From NCBI GenBank assembly GCA_903904005.1, contig CAIVAR010000185.1, positions 17,052-81,051 on the forward strand: 64,000 nucleotides of DNA, read 5' to 3'. Origin of the DNA: an uncultured Anaeromyxobacter sp. (GTDB lineage Bacteria; Myxococcota; Myxococcia; Myxococcales; Anaeromyxobacteraceae). Positions 1,569-22,623 of this stretch are shown here, in pieces. The notes beneath the pieces were generated by a model, which did no database searches, was not told where the DNA came from, and worked only from the letters and a program-made list of their open reading frames with translations. A program made the position numbers and the translations under genes. The number at the start of each line of letters is the position of its first letter. Position 1 is the stretch's first letter.

Positions 1569-1692
1569 CCCCCTCCAGCGTCGGCCGTTCCCCGGCGTCA
1601 ACCCTCCGGGAAGAGTCGAATAGCCTGCCGGAGGTTCCGGCTCCATACCATGAACGGGATGCAGGGGCCGCTCCGCGGCATACCGGAGCCGG

Positions 1693-2880: not shown

Positions 2881-5800
2881 GGGCGGGTCGAAGGGGAGGG
2901 AACGCTCGCAGACGAGGGGAGCGGATGCAAGCTGGGGACCGGACTGCCCTGGTCGGAGGGGCGACGGGCCCTCTGGCGCCAGGCGCCCCTCGCCGAGGCC
3001 AGCTTGCCGGCCGCGGCGAGGGCGGGCGCCAGGAGGAACACGCCGTGCCACGAGACGATCGCCATGTCGCCGTAAGCCTGGATGAGGAACACGACGGCCA
3101 CGGAGACCACCGTCAGGCAGGCCGAGCGCAGGAGGGGGTCGGCCGTTGCACGGTATGCGCGGGCGGCCAGGTAGAGCCCCACCGTCAGGAAGGCGAACAG
3201 GGTGGTGAAGCCGAGCACGCCACCGAATGCCAGGAGTCCGAGCAGGCTGTTGTGCGGGATGAACCGCCACTGGGCGAAGAGGTGGGAGATGTCGTCACCG
3301 CGCGTGTACTGGACGTATTCCCGGCCGAAGCCCATCCCCAGGAACGGATTGTCCTGGAGGTTCTTGACCAGGTTGTAGTTCTCGACGTCCCTTTCCTCCG
3401 TGGATCGGTCGGACTTCGAATCGACCACCGAACGGACCTTGGCGACGGGCGCGAAGACCCGGGACCCGGAGTTCCACCCGGCGACCATGTAGAGCAACAG
3501 CACCGGTGCAGCCAGGACGAGGCCGCGCTGGATCGTCCGCTTCGCGCGCGAGCGCGGCAGCATGAAGTACACGACCACCAGGGCTGCGACGATCTCCACC
3601 CAGACGAGCCGCCGGTTGTTGGCGACCATCCCGGCGATCAGGATCGGCGAGAGGAGGAGCAGTCGGCCGAAGGTCCGCCGGCCAGGCGCCTCCACGGCCA
3701 TCACGACCAGCAGGCATGCGGAGCTTGCGAAGAGCATCGAGTCCGCGTGGGAGGTGGCCGTGGGCAGGGACTCGACGGGGAGCGCCACGGTCACCCGCAC
3801 CCAGACCGCGAGGCAAGCCTTGACGAGGGCCGCGGCGACGACGGTCCGCGCGAGCGGCGCGAGGTCCCGAGGGCCCCGCAGGGCGGCCAGGAAGAGCAGC
3901 ACCATGGCGAGCAGCATGGCGGGTACGTGGCACTGCCAGAGGACCTGCCCGAGGTCACCGCCCTGGGCCATCCCCGTCGCCACGAGTACGGCCATGGCCC
4001 CGAGGGAGACGAACACCGCTCCGACGAGGGGAGCGGGTGCGGGCCAGGATCCGTCCGTGTCGACACCCTTCCCCGCCATCCGGCGGCCGACGGCGACCGC
4101 GGCGAGAAGGGCGAAGATGGCGTCCACCCCGGCGAAGCGCAGAGCGGGCACCGGGAGCGTGAGGTTGAGGTTCGAGTTGAGGAGATGGCCGAGGAGGTGC
4201 CACGGGGACTGCCACCTCCCCGAGGAGTCCCCGGGGGCGTCCAGGACGAGCATCGAGAAGAGGAGGACCAGCGTGCTCTGGCGCAGGGGTGCCGTGACGA
4301 GCCACCAGGCGGCGGCGGCGAGGAGGGTGGGGGCCACGGCGATGAGCGGGTTGGCCGCGTTCGCGAGAAGGAGGACCGTCGAGACGGCGACGCCTCCCGT
4401 GATGGCCGCCACGCCCAAGCGACGTGTCCGTGAGACCGTCACGGGGCCCGTCCCCGGTGAGGGCGCCCGGGACGTCGCCAGGAAGGTGAACGCCCCGAGC
4501 ACGACACCGCAGAGGATCCCGCCCAGGACCACGACGAGCGGGCGGGGCCGAACGGGTTCGACGGGGACCTCCGCAGGGACCACGATCATGTACCGGTACG
4601 CGAATGCGGCCCGGACCACGTCGGCCTCGATCCGGGCGGCCTCGATCCGGCGAAGGATGCGCTCCTGCTCCAGGGCGACGATGTGGAGGCGTCCCCTGGC
4701 GGCCACCAGGCCCGGCGGATCGGCCCGGCGATCCCGGATGGCCGGCAGCGGCACCTCGTCCATCGGCCCGGCGCGGGACGAGCCGGAGCGCACGAGCACG
4801 CCGTCGGCATCGGTGCGCTCCCTTCCATCGATGCCGTTCGCGATCCGCGGACGAGCCCCTGGGACGCGGGGATCTCGCTGCACCCCGCCACGAAGTCCGG
4901 CGGCCACGAGCGGGCGCTGGGTATCCTCGGCCTCGGCGGGCGTCGCCATGGCCTCCTCGGCCGCCTCGTCCTCGGAGGCCGAGGTGTCGCCCGCAAGGTG
5001 GCCCGTCTCCAGGTCGCGAATCCGCCGCCGGAGGGCTCCTTCCTGCGGGTCCGGCTCGTCCCACGACGCGAACGCGTCCTGCGCGGCCAGGACGCTGGGG
5101 TGGCGATCGGAGTAGACGGTCCGCAGGGTCGAGAGGCGCGCCTCGGCGTCCTTTCGCCGCGCGGCGCGCGAGGTCTCGAGACGGTCCAGATCGGCGCGCG
5201 CCGACGCCAGCGCCGCGGCGAGGGGATCGGCCGCCGTCGGGGAAGCCGTCCGGAGCACGGGCCGGGTACGCCGCGCCTCGCCGCGAAGTGCCGGAGGGAG
5301 CAGCGCCTCCTCCCGGACCAGTTCCGCCCTCGCAGCGGTGACCGCGTCGCCCGATTCCGCCGCCCGACGCTCCAGGATCGCGATGACCTCGTCGACCGGC
5401 TGTACCTCCCGGGCCCTCCGCGTCTCCAGGAACTTCTGCTGCGCCGCCTCGACGAGCACGAACGCGGTCCTGGCGCTCGGCCAGTCGATCCCGATCGCGA
5501 CGGTTCCCTCCGGCAGCGCCTTCACGTAGAGGCGCTTGCGGAGGATCTCGACCAGCTGGTCCCGGCGGTCGTCCAGCATGGGGATGGGGCCGCGGGCGGA
5601 CCGCAGCCGATCGACCGCGCGCAGGACGAAGCCTCGGTCTTTCTCCCAGCGTGACAGGAGGTCGGTCTCCTGGATGATGGAGAGCAGGTTGCGGCGGCTG
5701 AGGACGAGGTCGGCAGCGGCCCAGCCAGGCGCTTCGCCTCCCTGGGCACGCCCCCGATCCGGGTTCACGAGCGCCGGCATCCGGAGGTGCGGCTCCGCGA

Positions 5801-5936
5801 GGAGTACCGCCTCCACGTGCCAGGTGCTGGGCATCGCGAGCAGCGTCACGGCGACGAGCGCCTGGACCGCGAGGAAGACCCCGGCCGCGAGACGGAAGGG
5901 ACTGCGAGAGGGGGTCTGGCTCGAGCCGGCGGGCAT
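2877..5936 (-). CDS. Single-ORF fusion: polysaccharide co-polymerase (Wzz/GumC-like, about aa 1-490) + Wzy/O-antigen-ligase-family polymerase (about aa 500-1019)
   Basis: The N-terminal half has a TM, a long coiled/charged periplasmic region and a second TM (AFAYRYMIVVPAE...LVVVLGGILCGVVLGAF), and is paralogous to CDS 17934..19406. The C-terminal half is polytopic with the Wzy_C-like block NPFLGMGFGREY...RFIPHNSLLGLLAFGG. No stop codon lies between the halves; the junction is about nt 4440-4470. Confidence 0.8.
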   Translation of the reverse strand: MPAGSSQTPSRSPFRLAAGVFLAVQALVAVTLLAMPSTWHVEAVLLAEPHLRMPALVNPDRGRAQGGEAPGWAAADLVLSRRNLLSIIQETDLLSRWEKDRGFVLRAVDRLRSARGPIPMLDDRRDQLVEILRKRLYVKALPEGTVAIGIDWPSARTAFVLVEAAQQKFLETRRAREVQPVDEVIAILERRAAESGDAVTAARAELVREEALLPPALRGEARRTRPVLRTASPTAADPLAAALASARADLDRLETSRAARRKDAEARLSTLRTVYSDRHPSVLAAQDAFASWDEPDPQEGALRRRIRDLETGHLAGDTSASEDEAAEEAMATPAEAEDTQRPLVAAGLRGGVQRDPRVPGARPRIANGIDGRERTDADGVLVRSGSSRAGPMDEVPLPAIRDRRADPPGLVAARGRLHIVALEQERILRRIEAARIEADVVRAAFAYRYMIVVPAEVPVEPVRPRPLVVVLGGILCGVVLGAFTFLATSRAPSPGTGPVTVSRTRRLGVAAITGGVAVSTVLLLANAANPLIAVAPTLLAAAAWWLVTAPLRQSTLVLLFSMLVLDAPGDSSGRWQSPWHLLGHLLNSNLNLTLPVPALRFAGVDAIFALLAAVAVGRRMAGKGVDTDGSWPAPAPLVGAVFVSLGAMAVLVATGMAQGGDLGQVLWQCHVPAMLLAMVLLFLAALRGPRDLAPLARTVVAAALVKACLAVWVRVTVALPVESLPTATSHADSMLFASSACLLVVMAVEAPGRRTFGRLLLLSPILIAGMVANNRRLVWVEIVAALVVVYFMLPRSRAKRTIQRGLVLAAPVLLLYMVAGWNSGSRVFAPVAKVRSVVDSKSDRSTEERDVENYNLVKNLQDNPFLGMGFGREYVQYTRGDDISHLFAQWRFIPHNSLLGLLAFGGVLGFTTLFAFLTVGLYLAARAYRATADPLLRSACLTVVSVAVVFLIQAYGDMAIVSWHGVFLLAPALAAAGKLASARGAWRQRARRPSDQGSPVPSLHPLPSSASVPSPSTRP

Positions 5937-5948
5937 CCGTGGGGTGGA

Positions 5949-6119
5949 TCAATAGAGCCGCGGCAGGACGAACCGAAGCGCGAGGTAGTAGGCGGCGTTG
6001 AACGCGGCGGTCAGGGCCAGGGCCTTGCGCAGGCCCCGGGCAGCCGACGGGTCACGCGAGGTGACGATCGGGATGGCGACGATGCCGAACACGACGGCGA
6101 CGAGGAGGAGCTTGGCCAT
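5949..6119 (-). CDS. Small (56 aa) two-helix membrane protein, hypothetical; below the ORF-track length cutoff
   Basis: Hand translation: MAKLLLVAVVFGIVAIPIVTSRDPSAARGLRKALALTAAFNAAYYLALRFVLPRLY*. Third codon positions are GC-rich. It sits 12 nt upstream of the PCP-Wzy start and 73 nt downstream of the GH18 gene stop. No clear Shine-Dalgarno sequence. Confidence 0.4.
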   Translation of the reverse strand: MAKLLLVAVVFGIVAIPIVTSRDPSAARGLRKALALTAAFNAAYYLALRFVLPRLY

Positions 6120-6192
6120 GGCGGCGGGCCGAGCCTACCCGATCGGCGCTCCCCGGTGATCCGGAACGCGAGGGATGTCCCTCGCTTCCGGG

Positions 6193-8979
6193 TCAATACA
6201 GGTTTGCGAGCATCCACTGCGCCCAGAAGGCACGCAGGGCCAGGTAGCCGCCGGTCGTGTAGTAGTGGACGCCGTCCGAGGCCAGGAACTGGGAGTGGGA
6301 CTGGCCCCACGCCCACTGGTCGGGGCCGGGAACCACCGTCGGGTTGGCCGCGAGGAGCTCGGCGATCCAGCCGTTGAGGATCGGGCCGTTGACGGCGAGG
6401 TTGGCGTTGGTGCCGTAAGGGATGGTGCGGGGGACGATGACCACCTTGCCCGAGGCGTGCGCGGCATCGATCATCTGCTGCATGGCGTTCAGGAACATCG
6501 TCCGGTGGGCAGCGTCCCCGAAGTTCAGCGCCTCGTTGGTCCCGTAGGAGATGGACACGTAACGCCCCTGGGCCGTGCCGAGCCATCCGGTGAAGGCCGG
6601 AGCGGCGTCCCAGGAGGCCTCGCCCACGATTCCCGCGCCCTGCAGGACCGGCATCTTCCCGGGTCGGGCCGCCAGGATCATGTCGGGAAGGCTCTGGGCG
6701 GCGACGCCGGCCGCCGTCGCGTCGGCCGTTCCGTAGGGGTTGTGGGTGGCCCAGCCCACGTTGATGGAGTCGCCGAAGAACGTCACGTCGTCGTTGGTTC
6801 CCTGGCTGGCGTCGTGGACGTCGAAGAAGGCCTTCACGGCCCCACCGCCCTGCGCCGCGGTGACACGAAGGCGGATCCAGTTGTAGATGGTGGTGCCGCT
6901 CGTCAGGCTGACGAGGTGCTGCCTTCCGGACCAGGTGTTTCCCGTGACGGAGGCCAGCGTGACCCAGCCGGCGTCGCCGTCGGCAGGCGGGGCGGATCCG
7001 CCGGCGCGTGCGTGCGCCTGGATCGAGTAGGTCGACGGGCCACCCGAGCCGACCGTGAAGTCGGTCCGGTTGACGTCGTGGTGGACGTAGGCCACGACCT
7101 GGCCGCGCTGGTGGGCGGGGACGCCCGAGAGGTCGTAGGCGAGCCAGGCGGGATTCTCGCCCGCCGAGGTCCACGGGACCGCGTAGTACGGAGCCGCGTT
7201 GGCCGCCGAAGCGGTACCGCTCGAGGCATGGGCCGGAACGCCACGCGAGACGATGGGCGTCGGAGGGACCTTCGAGAGGAACGCCTCGCCGACCGCTGTC
7301 AGGTAGGGATTCGTTCCGGTCGTCACGTTCGTGCAACCGTTGTCGATGGTCCAGATGATCGTTCCGCCGAGCCCGTTGTCGCGCACGTACCGGGCCTTGG
7401 CCTGGATCGAGGCCTCGTCCTCCCAGGTCATGAAGCCGATCGGGAACCAGGCCTGGCTCCAGTCGTTGGTGCCGGCCGGGGCCCAGCTGGTGGCCGACGA
7501 GAGCGCGTACATCTTGGCGCCCGGGTCCCACACCTTCGTGGCGTGGCCCGGGTACTCGGCCAGGTAGTGCTTGATGATGTTCGAACTGCGGAGGAGGAAG
7601 TCCTGCCCCCCGTGGTCCGAGCCCCCGTAGGCCTGGTTGGGGCCGGTGTTGGGCGCCTCGGTGGCGTGGCCGTAGAACCCGATGCCGATGCCGATCTTGG
7701 CCGCCGGGATCCCGGCTGCGCGATAGGCGGCGACGGTGGAGGCGATGGACGTCGGCGTCAGCGTGCCGGCCCCGTCCAGCGCCGCGAAGAACCAGGTGTT
7801 CCAGCCCCAGTTCGCCGTCATGTCGTAGGACATGACGTTGAACTGGTCCACGACGTTCGCGACCTGGAGCGCCCAGCTGGCCGGGAAGGGGAGCCCGATG
7901 TTGCGGTTCACCCAGGGTGCGGGGAAGGTCAGGATGACCGTCGGCCGGGCAGCGCGCAGATCCTGGAGCAGCGCGAGGATCCTCCGCTGGGTGTCCGGGT
8001 ACGTGCCCGAATTGTCCAGGTACTCCTCCCAGTCGATGTCGACGCCGTCGAATCCGTACTGGTCGAGCAGCGCCAGGATGCTGGCCACGAACCCCGGGCG
8101 GTTCGCGTCGCTGGACGCGGCGTACCAGGAGGCGGCGTCCCCCATCCCTCCGGCCATCACCAGGGCCTTGACGCCGGCGGCGTGGGCCTTGGCCACGAGC
8201 GGCGCGGCCAGCGTGTTGCCGTAGGTGCCCGCGGCGAGCGTGAGCGTGCCGTTGGCGTTGGGCTGGGCACGGGCGAACATGAAGTGGGAGAGGCGAGACA
8301 TGTCGACGAGGTCGTGGGGGTAGTAGGTGTCGCCGTAATAGGCCGCGTAGTACCCGGTGACCCACGGGCGCTTGACGACCCCCGAGCCCCCGGATGTCGA
8401 GACGGTCACCGTTGCGACGTCCTTCTTCGATCCGTCCGCGACGCTCGTGGCGATCACGTGGCAGGTGGTGGCCGAAGCCGGAGCGACGTAGGCGCCGTTC
8501 GAGGAGATGGAGCCGCAGCCGGACGTCTCCTGGAGCGACCAGGCAACGCCCGTGCTCGTCGTTCCGGAGACGGTCGCCGTGAAGGTCTGGGTGCCGCCGG
8601 GCGCGACGGTGACGGTCTTCGGCGAGATGGCGACCGTCACCACGGAGGGCGCCGTCACGGTGACCAGCGCCACCGCGGTTCGAGTCGGGTCCGCGGCGCT
8701 GGCGACGACGACGTGGAACGTGCCGCCCGACGCGGGAGCCGTGTAGAGCCCGGTCGACGTGATGGTTCCGCCGGAGGTACCTTCCTGTACCGTCCACGTC
8801 ACGCTCCGGACCGTGGTGCCGGTGACCGCGGCCGCGAAGAGCTGGGGCGATGACGGTGGCAACTCGGCACGGTCGGGCGCCACGGTCACCTGGACCGGCT
8901 CGGCCGGTGGCTCGGTGCCGCCACATGCGGCAAGGGCGACTACGGCGAAGGCCAGGACTGGGATCTGGGGGATTCTCAC
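6193..8979 (-). CDS. Multidomain lipoprotein: 2x Big_2 Ig-like + GH18 (chitinase-like) + discoidin/CBM32-like + SGNH/GDSL hydrolase
   Basis: Lipobox VALAACGG. Two Big_2-like repeats (GLYTAPASGGTFHVVVASAADPT). Intact GH18 catalytic motif FDGVDIDWEE (nt 8026..8049). SGNH blocks FFGDSINVG, YGTNEA and SDGVHYY. Confidence 0.85.
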   Translation of the reverse strand: MRIPQIPVLAFAVVALAACGGTEPPAEPVQVTVAPDRAELPPSSPQLFAAAVTGTTVRSVTWTVQEGTSGGTITSTGLYTAPASGGTFHVVVASAADPTRTAVALVTVTAPSVVTVAISPKTVTVAPGGTQTFTATVSGTTSTGVAWSLQETSGCGSISSNGAYVAPASATTCHVIATSVADGSKKDVATVTVSTSGGSGVVKRPWVTGYYAAYYGDTYYPHDLVDMSRLSHFMFARAQPNANGTLTLAAGTYGNTLAAPLVAKAHAAGVKALVMAGGMGDAASWYAASSDANRPGFVASILALLDQYGFDGVDIDWEEYLDNSGTYPDTQRRILALLQDLRAARPTVILTFPAPWVNRNIGLPFPASWALQVANVVDQFNVMSYDMTANWGWNTWFFAALDGAGTLTPTSIASTVAAYRAAGIPAAKIGIGIGFYGHATEAPNTGPNQAYGGSDHGGQDFLLRSSNIIKHYLAEYPGHATKVWDPGAKMYALSSATSWAPAGTNDWSQAWFPIGFMTWEDEASIQAKARYVRDNGLGGTIIWTIDNGCTNVTTGTNPYLTAVGEAFLSKVPPTPIVSRGVPAHASSGTASAANAAPYYAVPWTSAGENPAWLAYDLSGVPAHQRGQVVAYVHHDVNRTDFTVGSGGPSTYSIQAHARAGGSAPPADGDAGWVTLASVTGNTWSGRQHLVSLTSGTTIYNWIRLRVTAAQGGGAVKAFFDVHDASQGTNDDVTFFGDSINVGWATHNPYGTADATAAGVAAQSLPDMILAARPGKMPVLQGAGIVGEASWDAAPAFTGWLGTAQGRYVSISYGTNEALNFGDAAHRTMFLNAMQQMIDAAHASGKVVIVPRTIPYGTNANLAVNGPILNGWIAELLAANPTVVPGPDQWAWGQSHSQFLASDGVHYYTTGGYLALRAFWAQWMLANLY

Positions 8980-9070
8980 GGTCGCCTCTTCCCGCGCTCG
9001 AGTGACGTGCGCCTGAGGGTCATTGGACCAGAAAGCGCGCCCTCCGACATCGCCTGGTGGGGGGATGCGT

Positions 9071-9095
9071 CAAATATTACAGGTGCTTACATTGT
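9071..9095. promoter_or_regulatory. AT-rich island with TTACA-N5-TTACA direct repeat in the divergent promoter region; on the minus strand it reads TGTAATAT (sigma70 -10-like)
   Basis: caaatattacaggtgcttacattg is the only AT-rich patch in the 265-nt divergent intergenic region (8980..9244) of a roughly 70% GC locus. There is no experimental support. Confidence 0.25.
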
Positions 9096-9244
9096 GGCAT
9101 GCTGCGTCGAGGCTGCGCGGCACGGGGAGCGCCCCTGCTGGGGATGGCTATCCCGTCAACGAGGCATCGCCTCGAAAGGGGCTCTCGTGGATACTCCACG
9201 CCCCGGCGGGCCTCACGTCCGCCGTTCGGAGCGGGTCGGGGGTC

Positions 9245-11605
9245 ATGGCAAACGTGCAGGAACGTTCGGACGTCGCGAAGGCTGGCCAGGGAGTGGGGTT
9301 GCGAGAGGGGGAGACCCGGTGGGACCTCGCCTCCCGCATCCTCCGGGCGGTGACGGAGCGGGTCACGGCCGGGTTCCGGCTCCGGAGGTGCGACCATGTC
9401 GGTCGGCGTGCGCGAACCCGCTCCGCGCCACGCGTGGTGAACAGGGGCCGGATCGACATCGGCGACGACGTCATCCTCATGTCCCAGTGGAGCCCCGTCG
9501 AGCTGTTCACGGGACCCGGAGCGCAGCTCGAGATCGGCGATGGTGTCCACGTCAACTACGGAACCCTGATCTCGGCCCAGCGGCACGTGCGCATCGGCGA
9601 CCGCGTGCAGATCGGGCAGTACTGCATCATCGCCGACACGGACGGGCCCTCCGGCGACGACGTCGGTCCCGGCCCTGCCCGGCCCGTGGAGATCGGGCCA
9701 GGTGCCTGGCTTGCGGGGCGGGTGACGGTCCTGCCCGGTGTCCGGGTGGGGTCGGGCTCCGTGATCACCGCCGGCAGCATCGTCACCGAGGACGTTCCCG
9801 ACGGGGTGGTGGCCGGTGGAAATCCTGCGCGCGTGCTTCGGACGGTGGGCGAGGTGCCGGGAGTCCATCCGTCCGCCGAGACCACGGTCGAGGCGGCGAG
9901 TTCGCCTCCGGCCCAGGTGGCAGCGACCGCTGCCCCCCTTGCGCGCGGGACCCTCATCTCCGACTTCACCGTCGATCCCCTGGCGCGCTTCCTGGCCGAA
10001 TCCCGGGAGGGCGTCTCGCTCGAGGCCGAGGTGGCGCCGTTCGCCCAGGTGACCCAGACGATCCTCGGAGGGCCGAGCCCAGGTCACGAAGCCTTCGCCG
10101 TCGTCTGGACCCGGCCCGAGACGGCACTTCCCTCCTTCGCCCGCGCGCTCTCCGGAGAGGGGTTCTCCGACGTCGATCTCGTCGCCGACGTCGATGCCCA
10201 CTGCGTGCTCCTGGAGCGAGCCGTCGCAGCATGGAAGCTCGTTCTCGTCCCGACGTGGACCACTCCGCCCGGAAGGCGCGGGCTGGGCGCCCTGGACGGC
10301 CGGCAGGGCGGGGCCCGCGCGCTCGCCATCTGCAATGCCCGGCTCCTCGAGCGGCTGGCGACGATGCCCGGTGCGCTCGCCATGGATGCCACGAGGTGGA
10401 CCGTCCACGGGGGAAGGGCTGCGCAGGGCGACCGGGCCTGGTTCCTCGGAAAGGTTGCGTTCGGTGACCCGGTCCTCGTCGAGGCCGCGCGGGACGTCCA
10501 GGCCGCGGTGGTCGGGGCCCGGGGGAGTGCGAGGAAGCTCGTCATCGTGGACCTCGACGACACGCTCTGGGGCGGGATCGTGGGCGACGTCGGGTGGCAA
10601 GGGCTCAACCTGGGGGGTCACGATGCCCCCGGCGAGGCGTTCGTCGCCTTCCAGCGGCGCCTCAAGGAACTCACGCGGCGGGGAATCGTGCTCGCCATCG
10701 TCAGCAAGAACGAGGAGTCGACCGCGCTGGAGGCGATCCGGTCCCATCCCGAGATGGTCCTCCGGGAGGAGGACTTCGTGGCCTGGCGGATCAACTGGAC
10801 CGACAAGGCGCGGAACGTCGCGGACATCGTGGCGTCCCTCAACCTGGGCCTGCAGTCGGCCGTCTTCATCGACGACAACCCCGTCGAGCGCGCCCGGGTT
10901 CGCGAGGCGCTGCCCGAGGTCCTGGTTCCCGAGTGGCCGGAGGACAAGCTGCTCTACCCGTCCGCCCTCGACGAGCTGCGATGCTTCGACGTCACGACCA
11001 TCAGTGCGGAGGACGCCGAACGCACGCGCCTGTATGCCGCCGAGCGGAAGCGCGAGACGGCCCTGTCGGAGGTCGGATCCATCGACGCGTGGCTCGAGAA
11101 GCTCGACATCCGGGTGCGCGTGGAGCCCATCGGGGCCGGGAACCTGGGACGCGCGACCCAGCTGTTCAACAAGACCAACCAGATGAACCTGGCGACGCGC
11201 CGGCTCTCCGAGAAGGAACTGCTCGACTGGGCCTCCGCACCGGGGCACGGCGCCTTCGCGGTGAGCGTCTCCGATCGATACGGGGACGCCGGGCTGACCG
11301 GCATCGTGAGCGTGGCCGTCGACGCGGGCCGGGCGCGTGTCGTCGACTACCTCCTGTCGTGCCGGGTGATGGGGCGGAAGGTCGAGGAGGCGATGGTTCA
11401 CGTCGCCGTGAAGGCCGCCATCGACGCCGGCGCCACCTCGTTCGAGGCGGTGCTGCTGCCGACGAAGAAGAACAAGCCCTGCCTCGACTTCTGGGCGCGA
11501 AGCGGCCTGGAGAGGACGGCTCCGGAGACGTTCCGCTGGGACGTCTCCCAGCCGTACCCGCTCCCGTCCTGCATCCACCTGGAACGGCTGGGCGACGGAG
11601 CCTAG
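9245..11605 (+). CDS. Fusion: N-terminal left-handed beta-helix (LbH) acyltransferase + FkbH-like protein (HAD-IIIC phosphatase + C-terminal GNAT-like acyl-loading domain)
   Basis: Hexapeptide repeats (IGDGVHVNYGTLISAQRHVRIGDRVQIGQYCII...GGNPARV). HAD motif VIVDLDDTLWGG, followed by SKNEE, DDNP and a C-terminal LLSCRVMGRKVEE block typical of FkbH. The start is uncertain; ATG 9245 (MANVQERS) was chosen within ORF 9023..11605. Confidence 0.8.
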   Translation: MANVQERSDVAKAGQGVGLREGETRWDLASRILRAVTERVTAGFRLRRCDHVGRRARTRSAPRVVNRGRIDIGDDVILMSQWSPVELFTGPGAQLEIGDGVHVNYGTLISAQRHVRIGDRVQIGQYCIIADTDGPSGDDVGPGPARPVEIGPGAWLAGRVTVLPGVRVGSGSVITAGSIVTEDVPDGVVAGGNPARVLRTVGEVPGVHPSAETTVEAASSPPAQVAATAAPLARGTLISDFTVDPLARFLAESREGVSLEAEVAPFAQVTQTILGGPSPGHEAFAVVWTRPETALPSFARALSGEGFSDVDLVADVDAHCVLLERAVAAWKLVLVPTWTTPPGRRGLGALDGRQGGARALAICNARLLERLATMPGALAMDATRWTVHGGRAAQGDRAWFLGKVAFGDPVLVEAARDVQAAVVGARGSARKLVIVDLDDTLWGGIVGDVGWQGLNLGGHDAPGEAFVAFQRRLKELTRRGIVLAIVSKNEESTALEAIRSHPEMVLREEDFVAWRINWTDKARNVADIVASLNLGLQSAVFIDDNPVERARVREALPEVLVPEWPEDKLLYPSALDELRCFDVTTISAEDAERTRLYAAERKRETALSEVGSIDAWLEKLDIRVRVEPIGAGNLGRATQLFNKTNQMNLATRRLSEKELLDWASAPGHGAFAVSVSDRYGDAGLTGIVSVAVDAGRARVVDYLLSCRVMGRKVEEAMVHVAVKAAIDAGATSFEAVLLPTKKNKPCLDFWARSGLERTAPETFRWDVSQPYPLPSCIHLERLGDGA

Positions 11606-11609
11606 GGCG

Positions 11610-12386
11610 ATGCTCGGACCATTCCAGAGGTTGGTCGCCCGGCTGGACGGCGTCCCTGCGCCGGCGCTGGGACGCGGGATCACGCTGGAGGGTCGGCCGT
11701 GGGTGTCCTGCAAGGGACGCCTGGCCATCGGCGAACGGGCATACCTCTCGTCGAGCCCCGTGGTGTCCCATCTCGTCGTGGCGCGCGGGGCCGTCCTGGA
11801 GATCGGGGCCAGGGTCACCATCGGGCACGGGGCTGCGATCGCCGCTCACGGGGCCATCCGGATCGGAGAAGGGACGCGGCTCGGCCCGTTCGTCTCCATC
11901 TCCGACACCGACTTCCACGTGGCGGGCGAGCGTGAAGGGCGCCCGGCGATCACCCCGGTCACGATCGGCCGGAACGTGCGCATCGGTCCGCGCGTCACGA
12001 TCCTGCGCGGATCGGTGATCGGGGACGGCGCCACGGTCGAGGCGGGCAGCGTGGTGTCCGGCCTCGTGCCGGCGGGCTCCGTCTTCGGTGGGGTGCCGGC
12101 GCGGGATCGTTCGCTCGCAGCGACGGGCCAGGTCCAGGGCACGGGCCTCGCCGCGCTCGACGATCTGCCCGGCGTCGTGGGCCATGCACTCGGCGCGACG
12201 GAGGTGCTGACGCTCGACACGTGCCCGATCGACGTTCCGGCATGGGACTCGCTCGGCGCGCTCCGGGTCCTCCTCGCGCTCGAGGAGACCTACGCCGTCC
12301 GCCTCGACCAGCGTGGCGTCGGGGCTGCACGAACCGTGGGGGAACTCGCCGAGCTGGTCCGGTCGGCCCGCGGTCGGCCGTCCTGA
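11610..12386 (+). CDS. Fusion: LbH acyltransferase + C-terminal acyl/peptidyl carrier protein domain
   Basis: Hexapeptide repeats (IGARVTIGHGAAIAAHGAIRIGEGTRLG...GGVPA). The C-terminal ~70 aa carry a phosphopantetheine-site-like motif VPAWDSLGALRVLLALEE (Ser214, nt 12249..12251). The gene starts 4 nt after the FkbH-like stop. Confidence 0.8.
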   Translation: MLGPFQRLVARLDGVPAPALGRGITLEGRPWVSCKGRLAIGERAYLSSSPVVSHLVVARGAVLEIGARVTIGHGAAIAAHGAIRIGEGTRLGPFVSISDTDFHVAGEREGRPAITPVTIGRNVRIGPRVTILRGSVIGDGATVEAGSVVSGLVPAGSVFGGVPARDRSLAATGQVQGTGLAALDDLPGVVGHALGATEVLTLDTCPIDVPAWDSLGALRVLLALEETYAVRLDQRGVGAARTVGELAELVRSARGRPS

Positions 12387-12400
12387 AGTATCGACTGCGC

Positions 12401-14050
12401 TCAGGAGCGGGGAAGGGCGCGGACGGGTGCGGCCTCGGCGCCCGCCTCGTTCTCCGCCGGCGTGCGATCCCGGCCGCGGATCTCCGAGCGCGGTGCGAGC
12501 ACCAGCGAGCGCGCCGGGACCGACGTCGTGAGGAGCGCGCCAGCCTGGATCTTGGTGCCCTCGCCGACCACGATCGGGCCGAGGATGGTGGCTCCCGGGC
12601 CGACATGGACGTTTCGCTCGAGCCGGGGAGCGCCCACCTCCCGGGTGTCGGGGTCGATTCCCATGCCGATCGTGATCCCGTGGGCAAGGATGCAACCGGT
12701 GGCGATGCGCGCCCCGCCGGTGATCGCCATGCCCATCCCGTGCGAGATGACCACGCCGGGCTCGAACTCCACGTCCCAGTGGACGTCGGACCCGTAGAGG
12801 TGTCGGATGGTTCGCGAGGCGATCTTCGCCGCGAAGGGGACCGGGGAGTCACGGAAGTACCGCATCATTCGGATGGCGATCATCATCTGGAGGCCGATCT
12901 TCTGGATGGAGTCCCCGAGGAGTCGGCCGCGCATCGTCTGCTTTCCGTACTTGGCGTCCGTGGCCCGGTTCTGTTCGTAGTCGGCCCGGATCTCCGCGCG
13001 GAGTCGCGCCAGGTTGCCCTGCCCAGGTGCGGGTGCCGAACCTCCGTCCTCCGTCTTCAGGTGCCGCGACAGGTCTGCGATCATCGCCCTGGCTCCCATC
13101 TCCGCGGCCAGGCCGCGGTAGTAGTCGATCCCGAAGGTGACGCCGGTCCCGCGGTAGGCGACCCCCTTCATCCCGAGCCGGTCCGCAGCGGAGGAGATCG
13201 CGTACACGGTCCCGGCGGCGAGGTTCGCCACGAAGGGCACGGTCGAAGGACCGACCTTCAGGAGGGGGGCGACACGGCTCCCGGGGGCGAAGTGTCGCCA
13301 CGGGCTGGCATGCGGGATGTCGGCGTGCTTGCGGGCGATGATCACGTCGTAGCGGCCGTACCGCACCGCCCGTCCCCTCCACTTCGCGAGGCTCGTGTGG
13401 TCGGAGCCGTTGACGGTGCTCGCGCTTGGCGAGAAGCCGATCTCGACCCCGCTCTGCTCGAGCCGGAGACCGAGTTCCGAGTCCTCGGAGCGCTCGAGAG
13501 AGGGATCGAACCCGCCCACGCCCAGGTAGTCCGCCCGCCGAAACGACACGTTCGCCGTGTAGAGTTCGTTGCCGCGCAGCCGGGTTCCTGGCTGGGCGGC
13601 ACGGGCGGCAAAGTCCTCGAGGAGCTTCTGGTGCCACCGCTCGAAGAGCGGCATCCGGTCGAGGTCCGGGGGCGGGAGAATCGCCCCGAGCACGGCCCGG
13701 CGGCTGCCGGGCGGATGCTCCCGCGTGTGCTGCGACAGGAAATCCCGGCCGACCTGCATGTCGTCGTCGACGATGACGACCAGTTCGCCGCGTGCAGCCA
13801 GGACTCCCCGGTGGCGAGCCGCCGCCGCCCCGGCATTCTCCTGGCGATGGACGCGGACATCGAGGTCGAGTCCGAGGGCGGACACGCGGGGTGCCGCGGC
13901 CTCGGTCGACCCGTCGTCGACCACGACGACCTCGAACGCGCTGTGGTCGAGATCCTGGTCGGCCAGCTGTCGAAGCAGGCGCTCGAGGAGCGCGGGCCGC
14001 TCGAATGTGGCGATGACGACGCTGACGCGCGGTTGACTGGTCTCCCCCAT
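12401..14050 (-). CDS. Fusion: GT2 glycosyltransferase + C-terminal serine-O-acetyltransferase-like (CysE-type LbH) domain
   Basis: Start trimmed to MGETSQPRVSVVIATFERP. GT-A motifs VVVVDDGST and VIVDDDM. The C-terminus has a CysE-like helical region plus hexapeptides (GVVISHGMGMAITGGARIATGCILAHGITIG). Confidence 0.85.
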   Translation of the reverse strand: MGETSQPRVSVVIATFERPALLERLLRQLADQDLDHSAFEVVVVDDGSTEAAAPRVSALGLDLDVRVHRQENAGAAAARHRGVLAARGELVVIVDDDMQVGRDFLSQHTREHPPGSRRAVLGAILPPPDLDRMPLFERWHQKLLEDFAARAAQPGTRLRGNELYTANVSFRRADYLGVGGFDPSLERSEDSELGLRLEQSGVEIGFSPSASTVNGSDHTSLAKWRGRAVRYGRYDVIIARKHADIPHASPWRHFAPGSRVAPLLKVGPSTVPFVANLAAGTVYAISSAADRLGMKGVAYRGTGVTFGIDYYRGLAAEMGARAMIADLSRHLKTEDGGSAPAPGQGNLARLRAEIRADYEQNRATDAKYGKQTMRGRLLGDSIQKIGLQMMIAIRMMRYFRDSPVPFAAKIASRTIRHLYGSDVHWDVEFEPGVVISHGMGMAITGGARIATGCILAHGITIGMGIDPDTREVGAPRLERNVHVGPGATILGPIVVGEGTKIQAGALLTTSVPARSLVLAPRSEIRGRDRTPAENEAGAEAAPVRALPRS

Positions 14051-14169
14051 GGCGGGCGAGAGGTACCCTATCCGGGGGTGGGAGGATATCCGGTGATCGG
14101 GGGAGGCGAGCCGTCCAGATCGGAAGGGGGGCACCTTGACTCGTGGATGGATGCATCGGAGAAAAGGGC

Positions 14170-15840
14170 ATGATCCTGGCAACTTGTGCGGTCGCGCTGC
14201 TGCTTGCCGCGGGGCCCGACGCTCCTGGCGGGGTCCAGAAGGTCCGGATCCGGGTCGACACGTTCGAGCGCAAGCCGATCTCCCGGTTCATCTACGGTCT
14301 CAACTTTCCGGAGTCGGAATCGACCTGGGGAAAGGGAGTTCCGCGAGGGGTCTCCCTGTCGAGAATGGGGGGGAATCGCGTCAGCGCGTACAACTGGGAG
14401 ACCAACGCTTCGAACTGCGGAAACGACTGCGACGGGAAGTTCCCGAACGATGCCTTTCTCGGCGGAGGGGACGAGCCCGGGGGGGCGGTCCGCAAGCGTG
14501 CGGGCTGGGCGTTCGAGCGGGGAGCGGGATTCCTCGCCTCCGTCCCCATGCTGGGCTGGGTCTCGGCCGACAAGGACGGCCAGGTATCCCTTGCCACCCC
14601 GCTCGCCGAGCGCCGCGCGACCCGGTTTCTCCCTTCCCGGGCGCGGAAGGGGGCTCCCTTCGCTGCGCGGCCGGACCGTTCGGACGGCGCGGTCTTCCAG
14701 GACGAGTTCGTCGCCTGGCTGGAGGGGGAGTTCCGGGGTCGCCGCGGCGACCCACTGCGACCCATCTTCTACTCCCTGGACAACGAGCCCGACCTCTGGG
14801 GTTCCACGCACGAGGAGGTTCGCGGGAACCGGCAGGGCAAGGACGGATACGTCCTGACGGGCTACGAGGAACTGGTCTCGCGCTCGGTGGAGTACGCGTC
14901 GGCGGTGAAGGACGTCGCACCGGAAGCGCTGGTGTTCGGACCCTCGGTTTCCAACTGGAACGGATTCGCCAACCTCTTCCACAATGACAAGCCCGACCCG
15001 GCCGGGCGGAAGTTCTTCCTGGAGTACTACCTGGAGGAGATGCGGAAGGCGGGCGAGCGGCAGGGACGGCGGCTGCTCGACGTGCTCGACGTGCACTGGT
15101 ACGCCGAGATCCAGAGCACGAACCATCAGTCCATCGCCAACGAATGGGCGCCGCAGGACGCGGCCATGGTCCAGGCGCGGGTCCAGGCGCCGCGCTCGCT
15201 CTGGGACCCGGCGTTCCGGGAGCGGAGCTGGGTGGACCGGGCGGTCGGAGGTCCGGTACGCCTGATCCCGCGCCTCCGGGAACTGGTGGCCCGGCACTAC
15301 CCCGGGACCCGGATCGCCGTGACCGAGTACTACTACCACCGGGGGGGCGACATCTCCGGTGCGATCGCCCAGGCCGATGCACTCGGGATCTTCGGCAGGG
15401 AAGGGGTGTTCGCGGCCACGCTCTGGCCCCAGGGGTCCCGTTGGGCCTACAAGGGGGACCTCGACAGGACGTACGCCTGCGTCTTCGCCGCCTTCCGCAG
15501 CTACCGCGACTACGACGGGAAGGGAGGGGCGTTCGGGGAGGCCTCGCTGCAGGCCACGACCTCCGACCTCGAGCGGACGAGCGTCTACGCCAGCACCGAC
15601 CCCGAAGGCGCCGGGCCGCTCGTGCTCGTCATCGTCAACCGTTCGGAGCAGCCCGTCGACGCGTCCATCGAGCTCTCGAGCGCGGTCCAGTACGCCCGCG
15701 CGGAGGCCTGGCGTGTCACGGGAGGCATCGGCGCCTGCACGGGCCCCGAGCGGACCCCCGGAGAGATCCCGGTGGAACGGAACGCCCTGGTGGCCAGCCT
15801 TCCACCGCTGAGCATCTCTACGGTCGTGGTGAGGCGGTAG
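14170..15840 (+). CDS. Secreted glycoside hydrolase family 44-like endo-beta-glucanase
   Basis: Signal-like MILATCAVALLLAAG. GH44-type blocks GGNRVSAYNWETNASNCGNDC, YSLDNEPDLW (acid/base Glu) and IAVTEYYY (nucleophile Glu). Confidence 0.8.
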   Translation: MILATCAVALLLAAGPDAPGGVQKVRIRVDTFERKPISRFIYGLNFPESESTWGKGVPRGVSLSRMGGNRVSAYNWETNASNCGNDCDGKFPNDAFLGGGDEPGGAVRKRAGWAFERGAGFLASVPMLGWVSADKDGQVSLATPLAERRATRFLPSRARKGAPFAARPDRSDGAVFQDEFVAWLEGEFRGRRGDPLRPIFYSLDNEPDLWGSTHEEVRGNRQGKDGYVLTGYEELVSRSVEYASAVKDVAPEALVFGPSVSNWNGFANLFHNDKPDPAGRKFFLEYYLEEMRKAGERQGRRLLDVLDVHWYAEIQSTNHQSIANEWAPQDAAMVQARVQAPRSLWDPAFRERSWVDRAVGGPVRLIPRLRELVARHYPGTRIAVTEYYYHRGGDISGAIAQADALGIFGREGVFAATLWPQGSRWAYKGDLDRTYACVFAAFRSYRDYDGKGGAFGEASLQATTSDLERTSVYASTDPEGAGPLVLVIVNRSEQPVDASIELSSAVQYARAEAWRVTGGIGACTGPERTPGEIPVERNALVASLPPLSISTVVVRR

Positions 15841-15867
15841 CCGGGAACCCCTGGCGGGGCACCCGGA

Positions 15868-17364
15868 TCAGCGGGCCGGCCGGAGGGCGGACCGGGTGAA
15901 GTCCCGGAGTTCCCGCCAGTCGACCGCGCGCAGCGCGAGGACCAGGACGACGTAGGCGACCGCGTCGAGCGCGATCCGTGCGGGCCCGAGGGGACGTGCC
16001 AGCAGGTGAACCACCACGACGACGGCGACGGCAGCGAAGGTGCGGAGCAGCATCCGGCGGCTCCGCCTGTCGAAGGCCACGCCGCCGAGCGAGGCCGTCA
16101 AGGCCACCACGACCACGGCCTCCGCTCCCAGCATGGCGAGCGCTGCCCCGGTCCCGGCGCCACCCCACGCGCCGAAATGGTTCTTCGCGACCCCCACGAG
16201 CAGCACGCAGAGAAATGGATTGACCAGGAGTCCGGTCAGCGAGATGCGGGTGACGAACCACTCCTTGCCCGTGACGTTGAGCGCGCAAGCGCTGACGGTG
16301 GCGACGTAGGTCAGCACGTACATCGCGGCGAGAACGCGGAGTTGGTGGGCCGCCGGGGCGTATGCCATGCCGAAGATGAGTCGGATCCAGACGTCGGCCC
16401 CGAGAATGAGGATCAGCGAGGTCGGGACCGCGATGGACACGACCACCTCCATCGATCGGGCCACCGCTTCGCGCATCGCCTCGGGTCCGCGAGCGGAGGC
16501 GCGCACGAAGAGCGGCATGAGCACCCAGCCGACGAGTGGCGTCACGAGGAGGGAGAGCCCGGCGAGGCTGGCTGCCGCGCCGTACCAGCCGAGTTGCTGC
16601 TCGTCACGGATCGAGAAGGAGAGGACCGTCATGTCGATGCGGCCATACGCGGTGAAGGCGATGGTGTTCAGGTAGAAGGGGACGCCGATCACCACCGACC
16701 GCCAGGCCGCAGGAATGTCGACGTGAAACCGGAGGCCCACGTCACGGCGGGCCAGGGCATAGGTCGCAGCGGCCTTTGCCGTCTCGGCGACGAGGAGGGC
16801 GACGGCCACGGCCTCGAGAGGGTAGGGCGTCGCCATCCCGATGAGCACGCCGGAGGCCCAGAGGAGCTTGGAGGCCACGTTGACCATGGAGAGCCCGCCC
16901 ACCACGCTCCGCGCGTGGAGTACGGCCGAAGCGGTCAAGCCGATGCTCATGACGAACTGGGCCAGGCCGAAGAGGAACACCAGTCGCCAGACCACGCCCG
17001 GCTGCCGCGTCACCTGGAGGATCAGCGCCATGGCCGCGAGGACCAGCAACGAGAGCCCGGCACGCAGTACCACCACGCCCCCGAAGAGTGCGGTGGCCAT
17101 CTCGGGATGGACCGGCACCTCCTTCCGGATCTGGGTGTCGATCCCGAAGGCGATGAGGACGAAGGCGGTGGCGGTGAAGGCGTCGGCGAAGTTCATCCAG
17201 CCGAAGGCTGCCGGACCGAGTTGACGCGGAAGCAGGATGCGGATCCCGATGGCGATCGCCCAGGTCAGCAGCAGCGACCCCCCCAGGCGGACCCCGCTGC
17301 GCAGGGCCACGGCGGCGTCGCTCGCTGCCGGTTCCTCACGGCGCTCGGCTTCGCGGGTGGGCAC
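15868..17364 (-). CDS. Wzx-type polysaccharide flippase (MOP/PST family)
   Basis: 498-aa polytopic membrane protein with about 12+ hydrophobic segments and the typical PST N-terminus (GGSLLLTWAIAIGIRILLPRQLGPAAFG). Confidence 0.8.
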   Translation of the reverse strand: MPTREAERREEPAASDAAVALRSGVRLGGSLLLTWAIAIGIRILLPRQLGPAAFGWMNFADAFTATAFVLIAFGIDTQIRKEVPVHPEMATALFGGVVVLRAGLSLLVLAAMALILQVTRQPGVVWRLVFLFGLAQFVMSIGLTASAVLHARSVVGGLSMVNVASKLLWASGVLIGMATPYPLEAVAVALLVAETAKAAATYALARRDVGLRFHVDIPAAWRSVVIGVPFYLNTIAFTAYGRIDMTVLSFSIRDEQQLGWYGAAASLAGLSLLVTPLVGWVLMPLFVRASARGPEAMREAVARSMEVVVSIAVPTSLILILGADVWIRLIFGMAYAPAAHQLRVLAAMYVLTYVATVSACALNVTGKEWFVTRISLTGLLVNPFLCVLLVGVAKNHFGAWGGAGTGAALAMLGAEAVVVVALTASLGGVAFDRRSRRMLLRTFAAVAVVVVVHLLARPLGPARIALDAVAYVVLVLALRAVDWRELRDFTRSALRPAR

Positions 17365-17379
17365 CTGCGTCCGGGTCCG

Positions 17380-17925
17380 TCAGGGCGTCGACGCAGCAGC
17401 GGCGTCGACGTCCTTGCGAGGGCGGATGGTGGCTGGAATGCCTGCTGCGACGGAGTCGGGAGGGACGTCCTTGAGGACGACGGCGTTGGCGCCGATGCGG
17501 GACCGGGCGCCGATCCGGATGGGCCCCAGGATCCGTGCTCCTGCGCCGATCCAGACGTCTTCCTCGATCACCGGGTAGCCGTCGTCGCGTACCGTCCCCA
17601 CGGTGTTGTTCCCGTAGAACCGGACCCGGTCGCCGATGCGGGCGTCCCCGCCGATGATCACCCCGAGGCTGTGAACGAAGTAGACACCCCGGCCGAGCAC
17701 CACGCGGGAGTCGATCTCGATCGAGAACATGGCGGTCTGCACCATGCGCAGGATGTGGTTGACGAGCGGGATGTGCAAACGGCGGGACGCCTCCCGGATC
17801 CGGTTGAGGAAGGTGATCCGGTAGGAATCGCTCCCGAAGACGAGGCGTGCGATCGCTCGGGGCGTCGTCTGCCCGGTGGCGGCCGTGGCCAGCTGGATGG
17901 CGTCGTCGCGAAGGGCGCTGAACAT
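17380..17925 (-). CDS. Serine-O-acetyltransferase-like LbH O-acetyltransferase
   Basis: Start trimmed to MFSALRDD. CysE-like helical N-terminal region plus hexapeptide repeats (GVYFVHSLGVIIGGDARIGDRVRFYGNNTVG...IGAGARILGPIRIGARSRIGANAVV). Confidence 0.85.
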   Translation of the reverse strand: MFSALRDDAIQLATAATGQTTPRAIARLVFGSDSYRITFLNRIREASRRLHIPLVNHILRMVQTAMFSIEIDSRVVLGRGVYFVHSLGVIIGGDARIGDRVRFYGNNTVGTVRDDGYPVIEEDVWIGAGARILGPIRIGARSRIGANAVVLKDVPPDSVAAGIPATIRPRKDVDAAAASTP

Positions 17926-22450: not shown

Positions 22451-22623
22451 GTCGTCGGCTCCCTCCACCCGAGCGCGATGTTTACCACGAGGCTGGACCC
22501 GTGCCGACGCCTCCCGGGCGCGGCGGCGTCGGGAGGCGACCCTTGATCACGGGACTCGTTCTGGCACTCGCAATCCTGCAAATGGAGGCGCCCGGCCCCA
22601 CGCATTCGTTAGAAAGCGGTCAC

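Follow-up and report, generated by a model that had tools for sequence, protein, structure and literature searches.

Why would an exopolysaccharide locus carry an FkbH-type loading enzyme and a carrier protein, each fused to an acyltransferase fold? The question is raised by two adjacent open reading frames, ORF1 and ORF2, in a 64,000-nucleotide stretch of DNA from an uncultured Anaeromyxobacter sp., here called the window. The window has a G+C content of 71% and is part of a 123.6-kb ENA metagenome contig. Its nearest species-genome relative is a metagenome-assembled genome of the Anaeromyxobacteraceae (L001), in which ORF1 has 76% identity and the adjoining genes are the same. Our answer, to which we give about an even chance, is that the pair is a coenzyme A (CoA)-independent acylation module for exopolysaccharide (EPS), which draws a C3 acid from glycolysis via a built-in carrier. 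FkbH loading, carrier-dependent acylation and transfer by left-handed beta-helix (LbH) domains are known parts; what is new is that, as read from their alignments, the LbH domains of the pair are complementary half-sites.

ORF1 (positions 9245-11605, + strand) encodes 786 amino acid residues and ORF2 (11610-12386, + strand) encodes 258. The public gene calls on the source contig give the same boundaries for both. The stop codon of ORF1, TAG, is at 11603-11605 and the ATG of ORF2 is at 11610; the ORF list and the junction sequence thus bear out the 4-nt gap given by a first-pass annotation of this DNA. A GGAG sequence lies about 8 nt 5' of this ATG, and by its junction ORF2 is translationally coupled to ORF1. 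From the N- to the C-terminus, ORF1 comprises N-terminal helices, an LbH domain, a disordered linker, an N-domain, a HAD phosphatase domain and a C-terminal acyl-loading domain, and it can be described as an LbH domain linked to a complete long-type FkbH protein. ORF2 comprises an LbH domain, a linker and an acyl carrier domain.

The domains of ORF1 were assigned from Pfam and NCBIfam scans and from an AlphaFold2 model (60 homologues, mean pLDDT 86.6). The FkbH domain profile TIGR01686 matches residues 429-755 with 261.8 bits (cut-off 146.65, E 8e-78), spanning profile positions 2-319 of 323, and the HAD-IIIC profile TIGR01681 matches with 58.7 bits (cut-off 35.75). The Pfam scan finds only Hexapep PF00132, at residues 148-181, with 36.3 bits (cut-off 27), while a series of sugar O-acetyltransferase families from NCBIfam covers residues 58-203, approximately. 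These matches agree with the first-pass claim that ORF1 joins an LbH acyltransferase fold to an FkbH architecture. In the model, two N-terminal helices are followed by a left-handed beta-helix, residues 50-200. The Ala/Pro-rich linker between the LbH and FkbH parts, residues 204-224 (9854-9916, +), is disordered, with pLDDT below 50, and its length and sequence vary among homologues. The α/β N-domain of long FkbH proteins, residues 233-425 (9941-10519, +), refines the architecture proposed earlier, as these approximately 200 residues sit between the LbH and HAD domains. The N-domain and the HAD part align with PDB entry 3slr, the N-terminal part of the uncharacterised Bacteroides fragilis protein BF1531 (sequence E 1.4e-58; Foldseek TM 0.80). 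The N-domain is also found in tetronate/butenolide-type FkbH proteins and in that of Sinorhizobium meliloti.

The HAD-IIIC phosphatase domain (10529-10984, +) is defined by the TIGR01681 and TIGR01686 matches. Its motif I, DLDDT, is encoded at 10550-10564, and translation of 10550-10576 confirms the full motif DLDDTLWGG noted in the first reading. A long helix in the model separates this domain from the C-terminal domain, residues 622-781 (11108-11587, +), which contains the segment SCRVMGR (11357-11377) with Ser-Cys706-Arg at 11357-11365. The secondary structure elements of the C-terminal domain are ordered β-α-α-β-β-β-α-β-α-β in the model, and it is from this predicted topology alone that the domain is called GNAT-like. 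A sequence search of the PDB with the C-terminal domain found no solved relative, and the top 50 Foldseek matches for ORF1 consist of 3slr and LbH proteins.

To compare the FkbH core with known types, it was aligned with a canonical methoxymalonyl-cassette FkbH beside a type I polyketide synthase (PKS) on an S. canus plasmid (L086), a tetronate/butenolide-type long FkbH (L084), a PKS-embedded FkbH domain (L087), the FkbH protein of Sinorhizobium meliloti pSymB (L085) and stand-alone FkbH proteins from glycan loci. Columns D436, D438, T440, S487, K521, D543, D544 and S705-C706-R707 are invariant across all of these types. Among the 60 fusion homologues, every one of these residues is present in 60 of 60, except D544, which is present in 59. 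The FkbH-like region is therefore complete, as had been claimed, with the catalytic Asp and Cys residues all present both in the homologues and in the PKS-type proteins. Cys706 is the sole cysteine invariant across glycan-type and PKS-type FkbH proteins. In the characterised enzyme OzmB, 1,3-bisphosphoglycerate gives a phosphoglyceryl-S-enzyme, which is dephosphorylated before the glyceryl group is moved to a carrier (PMC9057759). From its conservation and the OzmB mechanism, Cys706 is presumed to be the acyl-S-enzyme cysteine.

The carrier-protein domain of ORF2 consists of residues 181-255 (12150-12374, +). The motif WDSLG is encoded at 12243-12257, and its Ser214 (12249-12251) is the predicted phosphopantetheine site. 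An AlphaFold2 model of ORF2 (91 homologues, mean pLDDT 89.2) shows a beta-helix at residues 25-166, a low-confidence linker at residues 170-180, approximately, and then four helices, 183-193, 214-228, 234-239 and 243-255, with pLDDT of 91-97. Helix II begins exactly at Ser214, as in carrier proteins. All 91 ORF2 homologues have W212 and S214, and D213, L215 and G216 are nearly invariant. The domain also aligns with the acyl carrier protein (ACP) of PDB entry 2lml (E 1.5e-4). The model thus predicts that the C-terminus of ORF2 folds as a four-helix carrier protein and, together with the 2lml match and the invariant W212 and S214, upholds the carrier domain first read from WDSLG. Longer homologues of ORF2 have two tandem carrier domains.

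Pfam, the models and Foldseek agree on a hexapeptide left-handed beta-helix in both proteins. The LbH domain of ORF1, approximately residues 50-200 (9392-9844, +), is MAT/GAT/WcaF-like according to its Hexapep match, its WcaF and LacA family matches and its PDB alignment to LacA. That of ORF2, residues 25-166 (11682-12107, +), has a Hexapep match of 50.2 bits, alignments to MAT and LacA, and Foldseek matches to LbH acyltransferases. The two domains are mutual best paralogues, with a sequence identity of 37% (E ~1e-17). Residue numbers for the comparison of their active sites follow LacA (GAT), the galactoside acetyltransferase of E. coli, which has a catalytic His115 and a conserved Trp139. 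In the His115 column, ORF1 has Pro135 (9647-9649), within DTDGP; in its family, Pro is found in 53 of 60 sequences and His in none of the 60. ORF2 has His103 (11916-11918) in this column, within the invariant motif DTDFH, and His is found in 91 of 91 family members. In the Trp139 column the situation is reversed: ORF1 has Trp155 (9707-9709), conserved in 60 of 60, while ORF2 has Arg124 (11979-11981), with Trp in 1 of 91 family members. The first-pass annotation had taken the two domains for two LbH acyltransferases; with ORF1 lacking the His and ORF2 lacking the Trp, they are not two ordinary ones.

In the NeuO structure paper, the catalytic His is on a protruding loop common to all crystallised LbH family members, and users of acetyl-CoA (MAT, GAT, VatD, PaXAT, OatWY) have a conserved Trp opposite this His, supplied by the adjacent subunit (PMC3046976). 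The alignments thus point to complementary half-enzymes, with the Trp half in ORF1 and the His half in ORF2. Because His and Trp come from adjacent subunits in the relatives, a complete site would require an ORF2 subunit to face one of ORF1. Tentatively, and with a chance that falls somewhat short of even, the LbH domains could form a mixed ORF1/ORF2 heterotrimer with one complete site, which would place loader, carrier and transferase side by side.

The first-pass annotation knew of no characterised fusion of either kind. The fusions are not rare and belong to a large conserved family. Among the candidates scored, 1570 homologues of ORF1 were found at E <= 1e-10, the best 120 being full-length with identities of 52-76%, and 667 homologues of ORF2 were found at E <= 1e-5. 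With one genome taken per species, fusion-type genes occur in Myxococcota, Gemmatimonadaceae and Acidimicrobiia and in some Alphaproteobacteria, with the cultured Labilithrix luteola among the carriers. At approximately 50% identity, the FkbH core by itself extends to many more phyla. We compared 53 fusion loci, the window being counted in. Adjacency was judged by tblastn, as an ORF caller based on third-position G+C chose antisense ORFs over the LbH-ACP gene in very GC-rich loci (L001-L006). A full-length LbH-ACP gene starts approximately 24-180 nt downstream of the FkbH gene in 47 of the 53 loci. No third gene is conserved with the pair across the loci compared, so the transferase must be inside the module.

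Glycan genes dominate the surroundings of the pair. At least one glycan marker is found in 36 of the 53 fusion loci and at least three are found in 26. When the nearest neighbours in 37 loci, 126 in all, were put through an unbiased Pfam scan, the commonest families were GT2, Hexapep, WecG, Bac_transf, Wzx and GT4; no ketosynthase (KS), acyltransferase (AT), condensation (C) or adenylation (A) family was among the top 25. The pair is embedded among Wzx, Wzy, glycosyltransferase (GT) and OPX (polysaccharide export) genes in the window and in L001, L003, L009, L013, L017, L018, L022, L025, L027, L028, L032, L042 and L046. A KS domain was found in only one of 80 loci, L047, which is also the only one with both KS and AT, and an adenylation or non-ribosomal peptide synthetase (NRPS)-type gene lies within 10 kb in six fusion loci. 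Homologous fusions are thus not always next to PKS genes. In the window itself, tblastn with E. coli FabF, FabD, FabH, EntF, EntE and EntD gave no match at E <= 1e-3, and Pfam scans of approximately 45 ORFs found no KS, AT, C or A domain, in agreement with the earlier observation that KS, AT and C domains were absent. When compared with the canonical cassette of L086, the window has no FkbI-, FkbK- or FkbG-type tailoring gene and no FabH-like KS (Pfam scans, tblastn).

Based on these observations, the following sequence of steps can be proposed. A phosphopantetheinyl transferase (PPTase) encoded elsewhere would convert Ser214 of ORF2 to the holo form. By analogy with OzmB, the FkbH part of ORF1 would turn 1,3-bisphosphoglycerate into a phosphoglyceryl thioester on Cys706, the HAD domain, through Asp436, would strip the phosphate, and the glyceryl group would then pass to the carrier domain of ORF2. 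Given the residues present, 1,3-bisphosphoglycerate is probably the substrate and glyceryl the acyl group. At the LbH centre, glyceryl-S-ACP would serve as the donor and His103 of ORF2 as the general base. The acceptor would be a sugar hydroxyl, either on the cytoplasmic lipid-linked repeat unit or on a nucleotide-sugar precursor, before Wzx flips the unit. It is slightly more likely than not that the repeat unit receives the acyl group from the LbH centre while still on the cytoplasmic side. The first-pass annotation had already held it most plausible that the fused LbH domains deliver the C3 unit, or a derivative, to the polysaccharide. A self-contained, carrier-dependent acylation module is still the best reading because of the FkbH residues, the carrier fold, the lack of PKS and NRPS genes and the mostly glycan neighbours; the assumption of two ordinary transferases is what does not stand.

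Glycerate-type groups are known from bacterial glycans. Gellan carries a glyceryl ester (cited in PMC4432689). In Campylobacter jejuni, flagellin is decorated with a di-O-methylglyceric acid derivative of pseudaminic acid (PMC3068675), and an FkbH-domain gene, cj1302, is part of the strain's flagellin glycosylation locus (PMC7099621). The literature searched contained no paper that ties C3 acyl groups of glycans to FkbH experimentally, and it contained no characterised FkbH from a glycan locus and no characterisation of the pair.

Several observations weigh against the proposed acylation module. The profile check of the domain borders placed FkbH and Hexapep above their cut-offs, but the PP-binding profile PF00550 matches ORF2 with 16.6 bits, below its cut-off of 20.8, and only at profile positions 30-67, although it does match many ORF2 homologues. 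No PPTase was found in the window by tblastn with E. coli EntD or by Pfam scans of approximately 45 ORFs, AcpS-type enzymes not having been searched for; on the supporting side, in L016 and L019 the pair is immediately followed by an Sfp-type PPTase gene, and in L023 such a gene precedes it. No Bac_transf match to an initiating phosphoglycosyl transferase (EpsZ/Bac_transf) was found among the scanned window ORFs, and this enzyme may be encoded outside the window. The acyl group of gellan is L-glycerate, while 1,3-bisphosphoglycerate would yield the D form. With respect to the heterotrimer, the Trp is typical of acetyl-CoA users and its loss from ORF2 may only reflect an ACP-bound donor. An ORF2 homotrimer may then work without the Trp, since its donor is ACP-bound, with the LbH domain of ORF1 as a mere scaffold.

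Other points against an EPS acylation module speak for a different target. The same loading chemistry could serve a lipid head group, lipopolysaccharide, peptidoglycan, a protein glycan or a small molecule, the EPS locus being just one context of a portable pair. The survey of fusion architectures found a context that is mostly glycan, but not uniformly so: 17 of the 53 fusion loci lack any glycan marker within 10 kb. In L033, from Labilithrix luteola, no glycan genes are nearby and the adjoining genes encode a PLD-like protein, a histidine kinase and efflux proteins; in L010, L011, L014 and L041 the neighbours are an S41 peptidase and a DHH-family (RecJ-like) protein. Many of the marker-less loci are short contigs, however, glycan families dominate the nearest neighbours, and in the window and the 13 loci named above the pair is embedded among Wzx, Wzy, GT and OPX genes. 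A different target is thus rather unlikely.

We also consider it unlikely that the LbH domain of ORF2 is an ordinary acetyl-CoA-dependent O-acetyltransferase acting on hydroxyls of the sugar or of glyceryl-S-ACP, with the carrier only parked there, another enzyme delivering the acyl group and the LbH domain of ORF1 serving as a trimerisation scaffold. The nearest solved relatives (LacA, MAT, VCA0836) do use acetyl-CoA, and two other gene products of the locus, the FemAB-like GNAT (22417-23937) and the alpha/beta hydrolase (25122-26042), are candidate transferases. However, ORF2 lacks the Trp of its acetyl-CoA-using relatives, and none of the other candidates is conserved with the pair in other loci. 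The fusion of a carrier to an LbH domain is also explained most simply if the carrier feeds the LbH domain, as acyl-ACP feeds LpxA and LpxD.

That the FkbH-like part loads another acyl phosphate, or acts only as a phosphatase, so that the transferred group is not glycerate, appears improbable. The ORF1 clade has only 28-34% identity to PKS-type FkbH proteins, the characterised types, at which specificity is not readable from sequence, and in some of the related stand-alone cassettes there is also a gene for a MaoC dehydratase-SDR fusion or a glyoxalase-like protein, implying a further-processed C3 unit such as lactyl. On the other side, the residues for both thioester formation and phosphatase activity are all invariant, a dedicated carrier is always present, and no dehydratase or reductase is found beside the pair in the window.

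It is very improbable that a pathway for polyketides or non-ribosomal peptides, encoded outside the window, receives a glycerate-derived unit from the pair, the position of the pair in an EPS locus being accidental. In favour of such a role, the FkbH proteins characterised so far all act in PKS or tetronate pathways, divergent LbH-FkbH fusions (48-49% identity) lie in NRPS or PKS-NRPS clusters in L043 and L047, and in L027 and L032 the pair is 7 kb away from NRPS genes. Against it, L043 and L047 lack the LbH-ACP partner, the 47 loci mentioned above have that partner only, and the searches with the E. coli FabF, FabD, FabH, EntF and EntE probes and with Pfam led us to reject a PKS role for the window and most loci. 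L047 encodes an LbH protein that has both the His and the Trp, as well as a PPTase.

The FkbH core is also found without LbH fusions. Stand-alone ACP-FkbH cassettes occur among glycan genes in many phyla, where the partner transferases are GNAT, LbH or, in S. meliloti pSymB, MBOAT proteins. A small protein of approximately 100 residues with an LDSLG motif is encoded directly upstream of FkbH in 19 of 28 stand-alone loci. The gene after FkbH varies: it encodes a MaoC dehydratase-SDR fusion, a GNAT, a glyoxalase-like protein, or an LbH protein together with a protein of approximately 600 residues. GT4, GT2, WecG, epimerase and polysaccharide deacetylase genes surround these cassettes. The loader-carrier pair appears to be a portable unit, joined to different transferases in different lineages. 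The pSymB locus (L085, CP140921.1 1050793-1055827) encodes an MBOAT protein, a protein annotated as a TonB-dependent receptor, an acyl carrier protein and a 628-residue FkbH-like protein, and the FkbH core was matched in 40 S. meliloti plasmid records. L050, L055, L073 and L075 (approximately 11650-13400 in L075) have an ACP-FkbH cassette followed by a MaoC dehydratase-SDR fusion of approximately 560 residues. This pairing would fit a conversion of glyceryl-ACP to lactyl-ACP, as proposed for the lactate starter units of some polyketide pathways, and it hints at lactyl decoration of glycans.

The small stand-alone carriers were considered as orthologues of the ORF2 carrier domain, and this was not adopted. 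A profile of them gave no match to the ORF2 domain in hmmsearch, and hhalign gave a modest one (E 1.5e-4, probability 52%); a representative had no Pfam match. Both are here called carrier-like. Taken broadly, FkbH-ACP cassettes could be a general, so far unrecognised route for CoA-free decoration of polysaccharides with C3 hydroxy acids (glyceryl, or lactyl after tailoring) drawn directly from glycolysis, which here would use an obligate heterotrimeric LbH enzyme with only one complete active site, made up of His103 from the carrier-bearing and Trp155 from the loader-bearing subunit. We regard this wider proposal as possible but doubtful.

Compared with known systems, the pair shares its loader with one group and its transferase fold with another. 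FkbH/OzmB loaders of methoxymalonyl, hydroxymalonyl and tetronate pathways have the same plan of HAD and C-terminal domains, the same DxDxT/S/K/DD/SCR residues and a dedicated carrier, and the long form of ORF1, with its extra N-domain, matches tetronate/butenolide-type FkbH proteins (L084, L088). Unlike those systems, the pair has no PKS, FkbI/K/G or KS; its FkbH is fused to a His-less LbH domain and its carrier to a second LbH domain, within a Wzx/Wzy locus. The stand-alone cassettes, including those of 3slr (BF1531) and C. jejuni cj1302, share the long FkbH core, at approximately 50% identity, and the glycan neighbours, but their carrier is separate, their FkbH lacks an LbH fusion and their partner enzymes vary; none of the glycan-locus cassettes is characterised in the literature searched.

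The LbH O-acetyltransferases MAT, GAT, WcaF and NeuO have the fold in common with the pair, as well as the His loop (in ORF2), the Trp (in ORF1) and a C-terminal GGxPAR motif. They are homotrimers, whereas in the pair His and Trp are split over two paralogues and the likely donor is a tethered acyl-S-carrier, not acetyl-CoA. In LpxA and LpxD, and in Pls/PosA-type synthetases with their LbH-like C-terminal domains, an LbH catalytic domain takes an acyl group from the phosphopantetheine thioester of a carrier protein. NCBIfam matches to LpxD and TIGR02353 are weak and far below the cut-offs (45.9 vs 423 bits for TIGR02353). In contrast to LpxA, LpxD, Pls and PosA, the carrier here shares a chain with the LbH domain, and what is transferred would be a C3 hydroxy acid and not a fatty acyl or aminoacyl group. 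The Dlt system (DltA ligase, DltC carrier, DltB MBOAT, and DltD) likewise esterifies an envelope polymer with a small acid in a carrier-dependent manner, and the MBOAT-ACP-FkbH arrangement of S. meliloti pSymB resembles Dlt with FkbH replacing DltA. The pair differs from Dlt in that its loader is an FkbH protein acting on an acyl phosphate rather than an adenylating ligase, and its transferase a cytoplasmic LbH domain rather than a membrane MBOAT.

The genes around the pair (951-17925), assigned from Pfam and NCBIfam scans and the gene calls of the source contig, form a Wzx/Wzy-type EPS locus, which by its family matches is like the EPS locus of Myxococcus xanthus. They encode an EpsY-like OPX protein (951-1565; best NCBIfam match EpsY, Pfam Poly_export), an EpsU-like GT2 (1693-2880; best NCBIfam match EpsU), a fusion of polysaccharide co-polymerase (PCP) and Wzy (2877-5936, - strand; EpsV and Wzy_EPS matches, Pfam Wzy_C), a GH18-GDSL protein (6193-8979, -), an EpsD-EpsC-like GT2-LbH fusion (12401-14050, -; best NCBIfam matches EpsD and EpsC), a GH44 protein (14170-15840), Wzx (15868-17364; Wzx_EPS match, Pfam Polysacc_synt) and a stand-alone LbH protein (17380-17925). 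The GT, Wzx, Wzy and PCP genes listed in the first reading are thus present, with OPX and GH44 genes in addition. The best NCBIfam matches Wzx_EPS, Wzy_EPS, EpsV, EpsY, EpsU and EpsD are all below their equivalog cut-offs. The names of the matched families are those of the M. xanthus EPS pathway, and for the model eps locus the paper on that pathway mentions neither an FkbH nor an ACP gene (PMC7484181).

Some of these neighbours have features of their own. The product of 2877-5936 is a single protein of 1019 residues, in which an EpsV-like PCP (residues 20-336) is joined to a Wzy polymerase (Wzy_EPS, residues 512-990). Co-polymerase and polymerase are normally two proteins, and several related loci have separate Wzy-like ORFs of approximately 500 residues. 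The product of 12401-14050 joins a GT2 (EpsD) to a serine-acetyltransferase-like LbH domain (EpsC), which are encoded by two genes in M. xanthus; counting this fusion and the stand-alone LbH protein, the locus of the window has four LbH domains. The gene at 6193-8979, divergent from ORF1, encodes a secreted protein of 928 residues with a GH18 chitinase-like domain (residues 210-547) and a C-terminal GDSL/SGNH esterase domain (residues 734-905). This esterase, beside the acylation module, could trim or remodel acyl groups extracellularly. The intergenic region between this gene and ORF1 is 265 nt long and contains, at 9050-9110, a short stretch of much lower G+C that includes caaatattacaggtgcttacattgtgg; it is probably the shared promoter region of the two genes.

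Farther from the pair, the segment 21164-27487 forms a second putative modification block, which encodes an ATP-grasp protein, a FemAB-like GNAT (Acetyltransf_6), a GT2, an alpha/beta hydrolase and a pyridoxal phosphate-dependent decarboxylase of the diaminopimelate decarboxylase type. It has weak matches to the exosortase-A-associated hydrolase and decarboxylase families TIGR03099, TIGR03100 and TIGR03101, and its composition suggests an amino-acid-derived decoration. At 30357-30617 and 30618-30878 (+) there are two adjoining stop-to-stop frames of 87 codons, 261 nt each, with a very high third-position G+C of 0.94 and 0.92; on the opposite strand over these frames, a PKD/Ig-domain protein is called (29903-31540).

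Acyl decorations of bacterial polysaccharides control how soluble and immunogenic these are, how they gel and how phages recognise them. Routes are known for acetyl, succinyl and pyruvyl groups, and none is described for glycerate-type esters in the literature searched. If the proposed function is true, a two-gene, CoA-independent module acting on 1,3-bisphosphoglycerate would be a testable candidate for glycerate-ester chemistry; FkbH enzymology would reach beyond polyketides, and a compact cassette would be available for engineered polysaccharide acylation. As the family is large and has at least one cultured carrier, the strain Labilithrix luteola DSM 27648, experiments are feasible. If confirmed, the loss of His from one member and of Trp from the other of a paralogous LbH pair would be a clear case of an active site split between subunits.

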